In this document: piece after piece, positions 7,645 to 64,000 of the stretch | Numbering within the stretch: position 1 is the first letter of the stretch | How the letters are laid out: each line of letters begins with the position of its first letter | Origin: an uncultured Piscirickettsiaceae bacterium | Lineage (GTDB): Bacteria; Pseudomonadota; Gammaproteobacteria; GCF-002020875 | Direction: 5' to 3' | Length of the DNA stretch: 64,000 nt | NCBI GenBank assembly: GCA_964344785.1 | Contig: CAYFOR010000001.1 | Span: 22,723 to 86,722, forward strand | The notes under the pieces: model-generated | Databases searched by the model: none | The model's input: the letters and a program-made list of their open reading frames with translations, nothing else | What the model was told of the DNA's origin: nothing | Translations under genes and position numbers: made by a program

Positions 7645-8352
7645 CTACTTCTTGCGCGAGAGGATAAACTCTGTCAGTTCGATATCCCATTCGGTATCTA
7701 TGCTGACAAACTCCCCTTCCAGCACAAGAGCACCGGTCTTCCGCCCCTTCATTTTTCCCTGCTCCATCACACACTCACGGGTCAGTGCATAGCAGACCCC
7801 ATTGCGATGATAGACCGGCTTAAGCTGCTGACGGGCGACGATCTCGGCCCCCTTGGGATCGTAGTAATCCAGCTGATCCTCTTCCCCAACCACTAGCTGT
7901 TTCAACGGATGCCCCTTCGAGTCGGTCTCGGACAGTGTCCAGACCGAATCAAGATCTTCCTCCACCAGCTTTCGAATGGTAGCCTCCACCTGCTCCGGCT
8001 CTCGCAGCGGTGCTGTGGGCTGAAGAAGAACCGCAATATCGTAGCGCACACCATCGATCCGTTCACACTCCTGCAGCGCATGCTGCAGAACCGGAATATC
8101 GGCAATACGATCCCCTGCCAGGTCATCCGGGCGCATGAAAGGGGCCGCCAGCCCCGCTTCTGCTGCCACCCGTGCAATCTCTGCATGGTCTGTAGAGATC
8201 ACCGCACGATCGATCAACGGTACTTGACGCACAACATCCCCCACCAGCGCTACCATCGGCCGTCCACCGATCTTGCGCAGGTTCTTCAGCGGAATCCCCT
8301 TGCTGCCACCACGCGCCTGACAAACTGCCAGTACCCTTTTCCCTTCGATCAT
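7645..8352 (-). CDS. CMP-nonulosonate synthetase (acylneuraminate cytidylyltransferase family)
   Basis: 235 aa; ARGGSKGIPLKN glycine-rich loop of the NeuA/KdsB fold. Confidence 0.8.
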   Translation of the reverse strand: MIEGKRVLAVCQARGGSKGIPLKNLRKIGGRPMVALVGDVVRQVPLIDRAVISTDHAEIARVAAEAGLAAPFMRPDDLAGDRIADIPVLQHALQECERIDGVRYDIAVLLQPTAPLREPEQVEATIRKLVEEDLDSVWTLSETDSKGHPLKQLVVGEEDQLDYYDPKGAEIVARQQLKPVYHRNGVCYALTRECVMEQGKMKGRKTGALVLEGEFVSIDTEWDIELTEFILSRKK

Positions 8353-59665: not shown

Positions 59666-61015
59666 TTATGCGCTCTTGCGCTCATTCCACTTGGCTACCT
59701 CCTCATCCCAGCCATCCATACGGACATAGGAGGATTGACGTGGGTTGTCGACCATCTCAGGCTCGACCTCAAGACCCATACCCTCCAGGTAGGCCGGCAG
59801 GCCGATTCGCTCGATCATCTCACCGGAACGCTCATGCTCCAGTGCATTCTCGGCAAAGAAGTCGACGTGGTTCTCGGAGAGCTCGATGAACTCTTCGATC
59901 TGCTCCTCGGTCTCCACCTTCATGAACGGAACAATCACGGTACCGAAGGTGTCACCAATCTTCAGTGTACGCTTGCCGCCCATCAGAATGGTGATCCCCT
60001 TGTCATCACCCTGTGCCAGAATGGCGTCACCATCCTTGCCTACATATTTCTGACTGACTGAGGAGACCACATTGATACAGTGCATGCAGCGTACACACTG
60101 ACTGTTTTCGATGGTCAGGCTATTGTCATCGGCCATCTCCATGCATTGACCGGGGCAGCGGCTGATCACGTTGTCCATCACATGCTTCACGCCTTTGTCG
60201 GCCACGTAGGCCTTCCACCCTTCCTGGTTGATCTTGATATCATCACGCCAGGTACCGATCACCGCCATATCCGCACGCTGGATTGAATTGGTGCAGTCGT
60301 TGGGGCAGCCGGAGAACTTCCACTTCATCTTGTAGGGCAACGCCGGACGGTGCATGTCATCAAGGAAGCTGTTAACGGTGGTGCGCTGCAGATTGCCCTC
60401 ATCGAAGCAGGACTGCTCGCAGCGGGCCGCACCGACACAGGCCACTGAGGTACGTACCGCAGGGCCGGCACCACCGAGATCAAAGGCCAGATCATCGGCG
60501 ATATCCTTGAAGTTCTCGGCATCGTTGAACTTGTCGAAGGCGACCTGTACGCCATCGGTATCGGCACCCTGAAACATGATGTCACCCGACTGCCCATGCA
60601 GGGCAATCAGACCGGTGCCGGTCTCTTCCCAGAGATCACACATACGACGCAGCAGCGCAGAGTTATAATGGTTGCCCCAAGGTGGCATGATACGCAGTGT
60701 GTGGAACTCCAGCGCATCGGGGTACATGGTCTCGCCCTTCTCATCCTTCAGCTCGGAGAAGCGGGGGATAATACCGCCACCATAACCAATCACACCCACC
60801 GTACCGCCCTTCCAGTAGCCGCGACGGTTGATGAAGGACTGCTCCAGCGTACCGATGACGCCGCGCATCATCTTGGCCTGCAGGGCATCGCCGGTAGCCA
60901 GACGCTTCAGGCCGGAGACATAGCTTGGCCATGGGCCCTTTTCCAACTCGTCCAGATTCGGGGTGGGAATATCCAGCTCAGGGCTGACCGCGTTTAGCTT
61001 GGTTTTCTCTGACAT
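59666..61015 (-). CDS. dsrA: Dissimilatory sulfite reductase alpha subunit
   Basis: 449 aa; LEKGPWPSYVSG N-terminus, sirohaem-[4Fe-4S] Cys motifs (CVGAARCE, CPNDC), CVRCMHCIN ferredoxin motif identical to A. vinosum DsrA. Confidence 0.9.
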   Translation of the reverse strand: MSEKTKLNAVSPELDIPTPNLDELEKGPWPSYVSGLKRLATGDALQAKMMRGVIGTLEQSFINRRGYWKGGTVGVIGYGGGIIPRFSELKDEKGETMYPDALEFHTLRIMPPWGNHYNSALLRRMCDLWEETGTGLIALHGQSGDIMFQGADTDGVQVAFDKFNDAENFKDIADDLAFDLGGAGPAVRTSVACVGAARCEQSCFDEGNLQRTTVNSFLDDMHRPALPYKMKWKFSGCPNDCTNSIQRADMAVIGTWRDDIKINQEGWKAYVADKGVKHVMDNVISRCPGQCMEMADDNSLTIENSQCVRCMHCINVVSSVSQKYVGKDGDAILAQGDDKGITILMGGKRTLKIGDTFGTVIVPFMKVETEEQIEEFIELSENHVDFFAENALEHERSGEMIERIGLPAYLEGMGLEVEPEMVDNPRQSSYVRMDGWDEEVAKWNERKSA

Positions 61016-61491
61016 TTGTAAGGCGCTCCTTAACGTTTACCAGTCAATACACGTTTGTTTCATTACTCCTCTCCGGCCTTGGGAAATCAATGCCTCTGCC
61101 ATGACCAGAGAAGTACTGTTCTTTACGATGTTCGATCACCACGATTGAGCCGATACTCATCGACTCATCTCGAATGGAGCACGAAGTATGTCAGAGCACT
61201 TTTTTCGATTCAACGCCGATTCAACACGCAATCGGGATACCCCATCTATCCCCAATGGGATACTTCATTATCGTTTCATAATAAAATCATGATATTAATG
61301 ATCGATACAAATTAAGCATATAATCTCCCCTCTTGTATTTGGGAAAAAAACCCTTAATCTACAGTAAAAAAGTTGGTTATTAATGTAACTGCATACACGT
61401 TCCACAACCCGGCTTGGCAACCGTTCAGGCAGCCCATGGAACACAACATTGTAAAGATAAACATATTTTGAATATTCCAGAGTGAGCCAGG
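61016..61491. promoter_or_regulatory. Divergent regulatory region / long dsrA leader
   Basis: A 476-nt AT-rich non-coding gap between dsrA and the divergent plus-strand genes. It carries direct repeats CGATTCAAC x2 (11-nt period) and GGGATAC x2. Confidence 0.4.
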
Positions 61492-61677
61492 ATGCTAAAT
61501 TTAAGTGAAGTGCTGATGGAAAAGCAGCACGAGATGGAGACCTTCGAAGATCTGGAACGCGCAGTCCATGATATGGCGCGCGAAAAAAATGAACGATTCT
61601 TTCGGATCGATGTGCGCCCCCCCTTTACGGACACCCCGGATAACTGGGAAGACCGCCTTGAAGCAGCCTTTTACTGA
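61492..61677 (+). CDS. Small acidic hypothetical protein (61 aa)
   Basis: ORF-track ORF with charged, protein-like composition, divergent from dsrA; weak RBS. Confidence 0.35.
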   Translation: MLNLSEVLMEKQHEMETFEDLERAVHDMAREKNERFFRIDVRPPFTDTPDNWEDRLEAAFY

Positions 61678-62368
61678 GATTGAGGGTAGAGCATTGAACA
61701 GTAACATCCCATCAGACCCGCTTACTAAAGAAGACCAGGAGTCAAAAGAGAGCCGCCTGGCTGACCTGGAGCAGCAATTGAGTGGGCTCCCATCTTCTGA
61801 TGAGCGCGCACAACTTCTACTCGATTACGGAACGCTGCTACTCGATTTTCAACGGAAGGAAGACGCCTGGAGTGCTGCCAAGGAGGCATTTGACCACTTC
61901 AGCACGACAGCTGATTGGGAGCTGGCAGTCACCGCTACCGATATTCTGGTCTCATCCGACCAGAAGGCATCACTGATTGCACTGGCCCATGGTATCTGGC
62001 TTGGTATCACCTACCCGATTAACCCGGAGACCACAGTAGCCATCCTTCAGCACATGGTTGATGAATCACCCGCCGGTTCGGATACAGCCGCTGTGGCAGC
62101 CGTAACGGCCCACTTTATCGCCGATAAACGTGGTGGCGATGACAAGGCCGGTGAGAATATTCGCTTCTTTACCAGTCAGCGTCTTGCAGAGGTTGCCTCG
62201 CAACACCGCAATATCAAAAACCAGGAAGAGTTCGATATCTGGATGATGGGTAATGAGTTCGACAACCCCGACTCTTTTCTACCCAAGCTTTCTGCAGCGG
62301 TCGATGCGCTTGCTGATGGTCACTGGTGGATTGACCGGGATTCACTGCGAGCCGCTCTTCCACAGTAG
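61568..62368 (+). CDS. Hypothetical protein (225-266 aa, start uncertain)
   Basis: The track ORF overlaps the 61-aa ORF in another frame. A better start is TTG at 61694, 7 nt after GAGGG and 16 nt after the small ORF's stop. No motif recognised. Confidence 0.45.
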   Translation: MIWRAKKMNDSFGSMCAPPLRTPRITGKTALKQPFTEIEGRALNSNIPSDPLTKEDQESKESRLADLEQQLSGLPSSDERAQLLLDYGTLLLDFQRKEDAWSAAKEAFDHFSTTADWELAVTATDILVSSDQKASLIALAHGIWLGITYPINPETTVAILQHMVDESPAGSDTAAVAAVTAHFIADKRGGDDKAGENIRFFTSQRLAEVASQHRNIKNQEEFDIWMMGNEFDNPDSFLPKLSAAVDALADGHWWIDRDSLRAALPQ

Positions 62369-62378
62369 GTTGCAGGCC

Positions 62379-63065
62379 ATGAGCTACTGGCAAGAGGAGA
62401 CAAAAGAGCAGACGGTTGTCATCGATGACAGCGTGATCGATCTGAGCTTCCGAATCCAGTGCAAGGCACTGCCGGTAGACCATGGCTGGGCACTCAGTCA
62501 GGTAGTACAGCAGCACATACCCTGGTTTGCAAAAGAACCCCACGCCGCACTCCATCAGATCCTGGTAGCAGAGTCTGGAAATGGCTGGTTCTCTCCTGAG
62601 CAGGGCGACGCCCTACTCTATCCTTCGCGCAGAACCCGCCTCATCCTGCGCCTGCCAAGGCATCGAGTCGAAGAGACAAAAGATAGACTGGATGGAGCCA
62701 CACTACCGATATCGGGCCACCCCTTGCAGTTGAGCCGCCCGGAGACTCAAATGCTGAGCAGACATACCACGCTATATACCCGCTTTGCCCTGTTTGCAAC
62801 CAACGAAAGTGAAGATACCTTCATGGAACGCACCAGAGAAGAGCTCGCGATCAGGGAAATCTATCCCCGAAAGATGGTATGTGGGCGCATGAACCGGATA
62901 CAGGTTGCCGACCGGGAGCGAATCACACACAGCCTGATGCTGGCTGATCTGACCCCGATGGAGTCCCTGAAACTGCAGCAACAGGGGCTTAGTGAGGGCA
63001 AGGATTTTGGCTGCGGGTTGTTTTTACCCCACAAAACCGTGGAAAATCGACTCCAGCAGGAGTAG
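62379..63065 (+). CDS. Hypothetical protein (228 aa)
   Basis: ATG 11 nt after the upstream stop; Arg-rich; C-terminal Gly-rich stretch GLSEGKDFGCGLF; no confident family call. Confidence 0.45.
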   Translation: MSYWQEETKEQTVVIDDSVIDLSFRIQCKALPVDHGWALSQVVQQHIPWFAKEPHAALHQILVAESGNGWFSPEQGDALLYPSRRTRLILRLPRHRVEETKDRLDGATLPISGHPLQLSRPETQMLSRHTTLYTRFALFATNESEDTFMERTREELAIREIYPRKMVCGRMNRIQVADRERITHSLMLADLTPMESLKLQQQGLSEGKDFGCGLFLPHKTVENRLQQE

Positions 63066-63099
63066 AAATTCAAATATCAACAACAAGGAGAACGTAAAG

Positions 63100-63438
63100 A
63101 TGAGCTACGAAGTCAATGGAAAGACCATCGAAACCAATGCCAATGGATATCTTGAGGAAACGGATGACTGGAGCGAAGATGTTGCCCAGGTCATTGCAGC
63201 GGAAGAGGGCGTTGAACTGACAGACAAACATTGGGATCTGATCAACTTTCTGCGTGATGAGTTCCTCAATAACGGAGGCAACCAGCCCAATGACCGCAAC
63301 ATCGTCAAGGCGATGTCGAGCGCTTGGGGAGAGAAGGTCAACTCCAAGGATCTCTATGCCCTGTTCCCCAAGCAGCCATCCAAACAGGCTGGCAAGATTG
63401 GCGGTCTTCCAGAGTCTCGCCGCAAAGGAGGATACTGA
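63100..63438 (+). CDS. DsrC/TusE-family protein lacking both conserved cysteines
   Basis: 112 aa; RBS AAGGAG 9 nt upstream; core conserved with DsrC/TusE (NGYLEETDDWSEDVA..ELTDKHWDLINFLRDEF...KAM...GEK..SK.LY.LFP..P.KQA.KI.GLP), but the C-terminus is ...GGLPESRRKGGY with no Cys. Confidence 0.8.
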   Translation: MSYEVNGKTIETNANGYLEETDDWSEDVAQVIAAEEGVELTDKHWDLINFLRDEFLNNGGNQPNDRNIVKAMSSAWGEKVNSKDLYALFPKQPSKQAGKIGGLPESRRKGGY

Positions 63439-63582
63439 TCTCCAGCAACCCAGATGCCTCCTGCACACTCCCATTATTACGTTAGAAAATGTTTTTTTTA
63501 CACAGGTAAACTCACATTTTCTGCCTTGTTCTGGAAGCACGCAGAAATAATCTGAATCACTGGATACAGTGTTACCAAGAGG

Positions 63583-63605
63583 CCTGGCAACTGCCGGGTC
63601 TTTTT
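63583..63605 (+). terminator. Weak hairpin + T-run (possible terminator of the plus-strand dsrC-like operon)
   Basis: cctggca-ac-tgccggg followed by tcttttt; the stem is imperfect (U-G pair) and the loop short. Confidence 0.25.
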
Positions 63606-63619
63606 CATTGAGAAATCAA

Positions 63620-64000
63620 ATGGCCGCCCCCTCCACCTCAGACCTGATTGAGTCTCTGCGCAACCGTTTTGCTGCCGGTGAGGTGATCCCTGAACTTGAT
63701 CAACTTGAACAGCGGCTGCTCCAGAGTGAACAGCAGACAGAGTTGCAGATCCGGACCAAGACCCGGCACCTGGCACAACAAGCTGCATCACTTCGTATTC
63801 TCTATGATGTAGTTGCCAGCCTTAACAGCTCGGAGAATGTCCGGGAGCTGCTACTGCGCTTTCTCTCCTTTCTGAAGGAGATGGTAGGCGCCGATGCAGC
63901 CACCATCCGTCTTCTGACCCGAGACAACCAGATGCGCCTGCTCTCCAGCATCGGCATGGCCGAACAGCGTGAACAGCAGAAGGGGATGATTCCGGTTCGG
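63620..64000 (+). CDS. Partial N-terminus of a GAF-domain-type sensor/regulator; continues beyond the window end
   Basis: ATG 63620, open through 64000 in frame (127 codons), not in the ORF track (no stop). A coiled-coil-like N-terminus is followed by LRILYDVVASLNSSENVRELLLRFLSFLKEMVGADAATIRLL, which looks GAF-like. Confidence 0.4.
   Translation, partial: MAAPSTSDLIESLRNRFAAGEVIPELDQLEQRLLQSEQQTELQIRTKTRHLAQQAASLRILYDVVASLNSSENVRELLLRFLSFLKEMVGADAATIRLLTRDNQMRLLSSIGMAEQREQQKGMIPVR

Follow-up and report, generated by a model that had tools for sequence, protein, structure and literature searches.

The window analysed here, 64,000 nucleotides (nt) of contig CAYFOR010000001.1 from an uncultured Piscirickettsiaceae bacterium, carries an oxidative-type dsr gene cluster. 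The gap between its first gene, dsrA, and the genes diverging from it is a real, conserved control region, in which an inverted-heptamer palindrome is predicted to be the upstream activator site on which the dsrA promoter depends. We consider this reading slightly better than even (probability roughly 0.55). It is based on conservation, geometry, gene linkage and family similarity, from which we infer the transcription start, the protein bound, activation as opposed to repression, and the signal. Induction of the reverse Dsr (rDsr) pathway in sulfur-oxidising bacteria is poorly understood, and the searchable literature describes no two-component system, dedicated regulator or defined operator for an oxidative dsr operon. 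The region offers a precise operator, conserved across lineages at a fixed position, together with a named candidate pair, a cysteine-containing GAF kinase and a NarL-like regulator accompanied by a rhodanese, and dsr induction thereby becomes a directly testable question. Sulfurivermis fontis and Thiohalomonas denitrificans are cultured organisms in which the regulator idea could be tested. If true, the reading would permit regulon prediction and aid the interpretation of dsr expression in oxygen-minimum-zone metatranscriptomes.

The gap separating dsrA from p61, the first divergent open reading frame (61 amino acids), comprises 476 nt (61016-61491) and has a GC content of 41% vs. 53% for the window, with the lowest values (30-32%) over 61250-61399. 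A first-pass annotation of this DNA had described it as a divergent control region in which two pairs of direct repeats, CGATTCAAC and GGGATAC, look like operators, with an AT-rich tract and possibly a structured 5' leader; the gap, both repeats and the AT-rich stretch are all present. The 9-mer CGATTCAAC occurs exactly twice in the gap, 11 nt from start to start, and GGGATAC lies at 61234-61240 and 61257-61263, but an inverted copy of the same type, TATCCCC at 61247-61253, had been overlooked. An exact 9-mer direct repeat no more than 30 nt apart was seen in 3.9% of 5000 dinucleotide-preserving shuffles of the 476 nt (p~0.04), a 7-mer repeat in 48% of the same shuffles (p~0.48), and two or more inverted repeats (6+6, spacer of at most 8 nt) in 33% of a separate set of 2000. 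On its own, the gap sequence favours the 9-mer pair only marginally and the 7-mer pair not at all. With the repeats of this single sequence so close to chance, the argument depends wholly on what is conserved among related loci.

Scanning genomes with DsrA gave 80 loci (designated by L numbers, as are those from other scans). Twelve of these, and three more from a metagenome scan, share the whole control region, which with the window makes 16 loci; the 15 related loci, whose DsrA proteins are 79-90% identical, come from marine gammaproteobacterial metagenome-assembled genomes (MAGs). When the upstream regions are aligned, sharply conserved blocks (operator, -35 element, 17-nt spacer and -10 element) stand out amid variable DNA, bearing out a genuine divergent control region for the dsr operon. 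Towards dsrA the order is an AT-rich block, TATCCCA-TT-GGGGATA, seven variable bases, TATCCCG, a gap, TTGAAT, 17 nt, TGACATACT and the leader (Table 1). Comparison with related dsrA upstream regions, which the first-pass annotation had called for, showed the GGGATAC operator and the dsrA-proximal CGATTCAAC to be conserved and the distal CGATTCAAC not.

This result bears directly on the proposal that both direct repeats, the CGATTCAAC copies one helical turn apart and the GGGATAC copies, are phased operators for a dedicated regulator. The repeats do exist, and the 9-mer pair is marginally unusual. Nevertheless, the comparative data contradict that pair, because its distal copy is missing from 15 of 15 related loci, which carry unrelated sequence such as CTGCATTTAG or CTGTGGAAAG in its place, while the proximal copy is the predicted -35 element. 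The 7-mer repeat is at chance level, and the conserved geometry of GGGATA is inverted (7-2-7) rather than direct. We therefore regard phased direct repeats as quite improbable. The two GGGATAC copies are retained in another form, as the outer two of three heptamers within a conserved operator that has candidate dedicated regulators, the key unit being the inverted 7-2-7 palindrome and not a simple direct repeat. As for the AT tract, the part at 61273-61298, which contains a candidate -10 element for the divergent side, is conserved and the remainder is not.

The inverted 7-2-7 geometry, with exactly 2 base pairs (bp) between the heptamers, is kept in all 16 loci and in eight loci of other lineages. 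The third heptamer is equally constant, TATC(C/T)C followed by nATT(G/A) being conserved in 16 of 16 loci. Nine loci have exactly 20 nt between operator and -35 element and the other seven exactly 30 nt, which places the centre of the palindrome at -76.5 or -86.5; the two distances differ by one helical turn, as expected of a protein that must keep to one side of the helix with respect to RNA polymerase. The operator is present as a single copy in the 64-kb window. Further copies were considered, and only matches with two mismatches, inside genes at 7683 and 28350, were found and taken as chance. Exact matches in the metagenome scan numbered three, all in p61-dsrA gaps, a sample with little bearing on the wider regulon. 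No operator-like site lies upstream of the kinase gene.

The promoter of dsrA is predicted to be weak and of the sigma-70 type, with an extended -10 element. All 16 loci keep TTGAnn at a constant distance of exactly 17 nt from the -10 hexamer, and the block GCTCTGACATACTTC, corresponding to the predicted extended -10, is invariant or nearly so in the same 16. Sigma-70 promoters of this kind have hexamers 16-18 bp apart and a TG one base upstream of the -10 hexamer, as found here. Extended -10 elements are typical of activator-dependent promoters. Judged from the -10 element, transcription of dsrA would start near 61178 and give a leader of about 163 nt. A sigma-54 (-24/-12) reading of the conserved TGCTCTGAC block was discarded, as inspection by eye revealed no GG element at the right distance.

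More distant loci, with 55-63% DsrA identity, were also scanned. TAYCCC-N4-GGGRTA was found upstream of dsrA in seven genome-scan loci of other lineages (L028, L034, L038, L041, L051, L064 and L069), labelled Sedimenticolaceae, Thiohalomonas or unclassified Gammaproteobacteria. In these seven, a -10-like hexamer conserved within the lineage (TAGAAT, TAAACT or TAAAAT) is located at a distance of 72-73 nt from the palindrome start, so that the centre of the palindrome is at -76.5/-77.5, as in the window, and the DNA between palindrome and hexamer is unrelated. The first predicted transcribed bases share a CCAWT-like motif. A comparable palindrome, TATCCCT-TT-TGGGGTA, lies 287 nt upstream of the dsrA ATG in L085 (Acidiferrobacterales). 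The position held across lineages is the strongest support for the predicted promoter and for the putative role of the palindrome as an upstream activator site. A second, weaker CCC...GGG element near -42 to -46 is seen downstream of the main palindrome in L028, L034, L038, L041, L045, L051, L064 and L069, spanning about -51 to -34 from the predicted dsrA start; the clade of the window has an extra heptamer at -58 or -68 instead.

It could also be supposed that the conserved blocks function chiefly in the RNA, or as promoter elements for the divergent side only, with dsrA transcribed from elsewhere. The better -10 hexamer is indeed on the divergent side (TATAAT in 8 of 12 aligned loci, CATAAT in the window), and a consensus-grade dsrA promoter is lacking. 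However, -35 element, 17-nt spacer and extended -10 do not vary and are oriented towards dsrA, and the distance from palindrome to -10 is conserved across lineages. Moreover, Rfam gives no RNA family for the region: at permissive thresholds 60900-61700 yielded only four chance-level matches (E >= 1.2, far below gathering scores), and the whole window only two tRNAs. Of the explanations considered here, this one seems to us the least probable.

The predicted binder of the operator is most likely the NarL-family response regulator encoded beyond the divergent operon. The window ends within the gene of a sensor kinase, and L001, a metagenome contig in ENA identical to the window, extends its upstream side. 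The order on L001 is LptG, rhodanese, NarL-type response regulator, GAF/HisKA_3 kinase, Cys-less DsrC paralogue, Cas6/Cmx6-family protein, p224, p61 and, divergently, dsrABEFHCMK..., with dsrB, E, F, H and C following dsrA on the same strand. The kinase gene is thus followed by that of the NarL-like regulator and then by the rhodanese gene, the set occupying 901-3396 of L001. The same upstream genes occur in every related locus whose contig reaches far enough, and kinase, regulator and rhodanese accompany the dsr cluster in the 10 related loci with a long enough upstream flank.

The response regulator (219 amino acids) aligns over its full length with NarL (PDB 1a04, E = 5e-52); on the NCBIfam NarL model it reaches 233 bits, just under the cut-off of 250. 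In its recognition helix, TVKLHVK (TVKVHVK in NarL), both lysines are kept. The kinase (444 amino acids) contains only the Pfam domains GAF, HisKA_3 and HATPase, and it matches the NarQ model with its C-terminal part only (profile positions 305-562, 158 bits vs. a cut-off of 553). The features by which NarX and NarQ are recognized, a periplasmic nitrate-binding P-box domain flanked by two membrane helices and a HAMP domain, are missing; unlike NarX, the kinase is cytoplasmic, without any membrane, periplasmic or HAMP segment. The system is therefore not the NarXL nitrate system, whose defining periplasmic sensor is absent. Relatives of the kinase of about 550 amino acids have one short N-terminal hydrophobic segment plus HAMP. 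Four cysteines of the GAF domain, spaced C-x15-C-x-C-x9-C, are invariant in 10 members of the clade despite variable surroundings, and the wider family of ~550-residue kinases keeps two of the four without exception. This conservation suggests redox, Fe-S or persulfide sensing, and what the kinase/regulator pair senses is presumably sulfur or redox state, not nitrate in the periplasm. On a more speculative, low-probability reading, the GAF cysteines might be persulfidated by the rhodanese, in which case the kinase would be the long-sought sulfane-sulfur sensor for the rDsr pathway.

The association with dsr genes is not confined to one arrangement. Kinase homologues (42-48% identical) together with the regulator lie directly 3' of dsr...N-R in five of the five longer contigs examined, namely L089 (Sulfurivermis fontis AP018724.1, a complete genome), L090, L091, L092 and L093, and in one of these assemblies the kinase sequence is named Thiohalomonas denitrificans by NCBI and UniRef. 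Regulators in this position are 55-60% identical to that of the window in the four compared, with an identical recognition helix, and a rhodanese homologue (57-60% identical) follows directly in two of the five contigs (L091 and L092). In L064, dsrN, dsrR and the kinase gene are part of the divergent operon. The two-component system has thus stayed linked to dsr genes in no fewer than three gene arrangements, an argument in favour of a dedicated role. In the clade of the window, the kinase/regulator set has been relocated to a position upstream of the divergent operon, and the N-terminal membrane/HAMP part has been lost from the kinase.

Known NarL-type promoters provide the closest comparison. 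NarL prefers inverted heptamers 2 bp apart, as in the engineered palindromic narG -89/-89 site TACCCCTAAAGGGGTA (PMC4549865), and the dsrA operator is identical to that site at 12 of 16 positions. On the nrf promoter of Escherichia coli, NarL and NarP work from -74.5 (PMC5434802). The dsrA region likewise has a 7-2-7 site about 75 bp upstream of a predicted weak sigma-70 promoter, and its partner, as in the case of NarL, is a full-length NarL-like regulator with a GerE helix-turn-helix and the same recognition-helix lysines. The mechanism therefore looks like that of a NarL-type upstream-activated promoter, with a putative NarL-family site; control of a weak promoter by a response regulator at an upstream 7-2-7 site is textbook. 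Unlike the E. coli NarL/NarP sites, the heptamers read TATCCCM and not TACYYMT, the target is a sulfur-oxidation operon, and no FNR-like site was seen at -41.5.

The likeness also raises the question of whether the palindrome is an ordinary NarL/NarP site, used by the nitrate/nitrite regulator of the cell or by an unlinked global factor, with the linked system not being the binder. If so, dsr expression would be tied to electron-acceptor availability. The heptamers do look like NarL sites, TACCCC variants being present in L034, L051 and L085, and their position resembles that of the nrf site mentioned above. On the other hand, no NarL-like protein closer than the linked regulator itself was seen, the recognition helix of this regulator does not differ among the lineages sharing the palindrome, the 64 kb hold no other copy of the site, and there is no nar, nap or nir context around it. 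We consider such a nitrate-type site unlikely, and retain the linked regulator as the preferred binder.

Soluble two-component systems are similar in other respects. As in NreBC and DosS-DosR, a soluble HisKA_3 kinase with a conserved-cysteine (NreB) or GAF (DosS) sensory domain is paired with a GerE-type regulator. Regulators of the NreBC and DosR type bind GC-rich palindromes. The present kinase differs from NreB and DosS in domain type and cysteine spacing, all four cysteines being in a single GAF domain, and the DosR box (GGGAC...GTCCC, with 4-bp spacing) has the opposite orientation to the dsrA operator. An NreBC pair in Bacillus licheniformis has been described as a sulfide sensor (PMC9918477). 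In Allochromatium vinosum, a single main promoter upstream of dsrA drives the long oxidative-type dsrABEFHC... operon (PMC3368242, after Grimm et al. 2010), an arrangement similar to that predicted here. The searchable texts describe neither a two-component system nor a 7-2-7 operator for the A. vinosum dsr promoter.

The genes diverging from dsrA offer a candidate binder of their own. The four-gene divergent operon lies upstream of dsrA in every related locus and also in other lineages, and the palindrome might be bound by one of its products, the best candidate being the Cys-less DsrC paralogue; the pair of divergent operons would then be autoregulated and the two-component system would have another role. 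The DsrC fold carries a helix-turn-helix-like motif, and the paralogue has lost both catalytic cysteines and has a basic tail, LPESRRKGGY, conserved across lineages. Every locus with the palindrome has the p61, Cas6-like and DsrC-like genes upstream of dsrA (p224 in all but L064), and no p61-less locus in the sample has the palindrome. The DsrC protein of A. vinosum reportedly binds DNA upstream of dsrA, so that in both organisms a DsrC-family protein is a candidate DNA binder, although here, unlike in A. vinosum, the Cys-less paralogue occurs beside a catalytic DsrC. Against this, a 7-2-7 inverted heptamer is the signature of GerE/NarL-type dimers, and the dsr linkage of the two-component system in several arrangements would need a separate explanation. 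Moreover, we know of no defined DNA site for DsrC. The small Dsr protein DsrD, for which a regulatory role was once suggested, shows only non-specific DNA binding (PMC8794893), which also counts against the DsrC paralogue. Because of the geometry of the site we place this explanation second, as a possibility to be taken seriously rather than a probable one.

Taken as a NarL-type system, the region would work as follows. The dsr operon would be transcribed from a weak sigma-70-type promoter, consisting of TTGAAT, the 17-nt spacer and the extended -10 TGACATACT, and this promoter would be activated from the NarL-type 7-2-7 site at -76.5 plus the third heptamer at about -58. The cytoplasmic Cys-containing GAF kinase would phosphorylate the linked NarL-family regulator, which would bind the operator. 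A single dimer bound at the shared site could activate dsrA and at the same time repress or otherwise modulate the divergent operon. In the mRNA, a 5' hairpin domain and a weak Shine-Dalgarno hairpin in the leader probably affect stability or translation.

A structured 5' leader, as suggested by the first-pass annotation, is plausible rather than established; it would not lie in the repeat region but downstream of the repeats, at 61016-61178. Among 14 distinct orthologous leaders, the mean z-score of the folding energy is -1.56 at full length, where it is negative in 12 of the 14, and -1.83 for the first 75 nt. The folds of individual leaders share one plan, with a terminal helix formed by a 5' CCAAUU motif. 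The 5' hairpin occurs at the same position with an unrelated stem and a UGAU(A/G)U loop in seven loci (L013, L014, L017, L020, L021, L024 and L082). The ribosome-binding block is almost identical across the 11 loci compared, and a 5-bp hairpin, UAAGG/CCUUA, overlaps the Shine-Dalgarno sequence; RNAalifold finds it in 11 of 11 loci, its columns being invariant and hence without covariation. Applied to a MAFFT alignment of the leaders, RNAalifold recovered only this hairpin, as the variable region misaligns. In a small alignment of the 5' hairpin, differences in loop length shift the register, and alignment based on sequence fails in the variable parts of the leader. A conserved upstream open reading frame was also considered and rejected; an ATG follows CTGAT in some loci but not in L016, L021, L022 and L024, and the lengths vary. 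By eye, the 5' end of the leader in related loci (AAUUUAAGG; 61150-61178 in the window) repeats the UUAAGG of the Shine-Dalgarno region. It is possible that AAUUUAAGG competes for the CCUUA anti-Shine-Dalgarno strand by the start codon, which would constitute a translational switch.

Several observations weigh against activation of dsrA by a NarL-type regulator acting from the palindrome. The predicted dsrA promoter has 8 of 12 consensus positions, below the threshold of a consensus promoter scan, which passed no site and thus did not call it. Each heptamer (TATCCCM) agrees with the NarL consensus TACYYMT at only five of seven positions, the mismatches being T instead of C at position 3 and A or C instead of T at position 7. 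Six of the palindrome loci of other lineages have no kinase or regulator gene in the 6 kb upstream, although these may be located 3', beyond the DNA fetched, and the p61...DsrC-like operon goes with the palindrome in this sample just as strictly as the two-component system could. With a 17-nt spacer, the -35 element of the weakly predicted divergent promoter would overlap the outer heptamer, placing the centre of the palindrome at about -34.5, and a site there fits repression of that promoter better than activation. Support for a structured leader is modest (minimum free energy of -46.6 kcal/mol and z = -1.95 in the window), and only about 8 of 14 leaders show the 5' hairpin clearly, the rest having it in a weak or unclear form.

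Table 1. Features of the dsrA control region and neighbouring genes in the 64-kb window
Feature	Position	Strand	Remarks
dsrA	59666..61015	-	TIGR02064, 470 bits; first gene of the oxidative-type dsrABEFHCMK... cluster
Ribosome-binding block TTGACTGGTAAACGTTAAGGAGCGCCTTACAA	61016..61047	-	Near-invariant; Shine-Dalgarno AAGGAG 61026-61031
Predicted dsrA mRNA 5' leader, ~163 nt	61016..61178	-	Terminal helix, 5' hairpin, long variable hairpin, Shine-Dalgarno hairpin
5' hairpin GAGUCGAU-GAGU-AUCGGCUC	61147..61166	-	Version of the window
Predicted extended -10 TGACATACT	61185..61193	-	Hexamer CATACT 61185-61190
dsrA-proximal CGATTCAAC copy	61206..61214	-	Contains predicted -35 TTGAAT 61208-61213
Distal CGATTCAAC copy	61217..61225	-	Window-specific, not a conserved element
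Third heptamer TATCCCG (read towards dsrA)	61233..61239	-	Overlaps first GGGATAC copy; centre ~-58
7-2-7 inverted-heptamer operator TATCCCA-TT-GGGGATA	61247..61262	.	Centre -76.5 from predicted dsrA start; contains second GGGATAC copy
Conserved AT-rich block	61273..61298	+	Candidate divergent -10 CATAAT 61277-61282
Conserved block CCCCTCTTGT	61327-61336	.	MAFFT alignment of 12-14 loci
Conserved block CCTTAATCTACAGTAAAAAAGTTGGTTATTA	61352-61382	.	MAFFT alignment of 12-14 loci
Window-specific insertion, ~90 nt	61383..61470	.	Missing from other aligned loci; part of the length of the gap
Divergent operon	61492..63438	+	p61, p224, Cas6/Cmx6-family, Cys-less DsrC paralogue
p61	61492-61677	+	No Pfam or NCBIfam family match
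p224	61694-62368	+	No Pfam or NCBIfam family match
Cas6/Cmx6-family protein	62379-63065	+	Pfam Cas6, 180 bits
Cys-less DsrC paralogue	63100-63438	+	Pfam DsrC, 118 bits
GAF-HisKA_3 sensor kinase, gene start	63620..64000	+	Runs off the window; L001 2062-3396

The divergent four-gene operon is found in many gammaproteobacterial sulfur oxidisers (L007-L024, L028, L034, L038, L041, L051, L064, L069 and L085-L088). Its Cas6/Cmx6-family gene was considered as part of a type I-MYXAN system of clustered regularly interspaced short palindromic repeats (CRISPR-Cas) and rejected as such: 40000-64000 of the window and 1-6000 of L001 contain no CRISPR array, no other cas gene is nearby, and the neighbours are p224 and the DsrC paralogue. 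There is a slight chance that the protein is a domesticated RNA-hairpin binder or endonuclease acting on the hairpins of the dsrA leader, in which case the operator, with the regulator bound, would set transcription in the two directions while the Cas6-like protein sets processing, stability or translation of the dsr mRNA. Literature searches on Cas6 together with dsr, and on two-component systems beside dsrN/dsrR, gave nothing relevant. Homologues of the Cas6-like protein number more than 2000, some with a TauD-like gene in front.

Readings of the AT block as a site for Fur, FNR or IHF gave by eye at best partial matches with one mismatch, and no promoter or known motif could be assigned to the conserved blocks CCCCTCTTGT and CCTTAATCTACAGTAAAAAAGTTGGTTATTA. 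The ~90-nt insertion between these blocks and p61 holds an inverted repeat, GTTCCA...TGGAAC (GTTCCATGG...GTGGAAC).

Many of the same MAGs (L002-L006, L008, L010-L012 and L019) contain a stand-alone second dsrA paralogue, 79-89% identical to the DsrA of the window, without dsrB or other dsr genes and without the control region described here. Its context is conserved and comprises an EAL response regulator, a peroxiredoxin, PsiE, a cytochrome c, a DUF302 protein and a P-type ATPase. An origin as phage auxiliary genes was ruled out for these paralogues, their neighbours being chromosomal genes.

Between the DsrC paralogue and the kinase gene (63439-63619 in the window; also viewed in L007, L009, L013, L015, L016 and L024), most loci have a hairpin followed by a T-run, resembling an intrinsic terminator, which splits the upstream genes into two transcription units. 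In L009 this gap contains a run of N and tandem TAGCTTG repeats.

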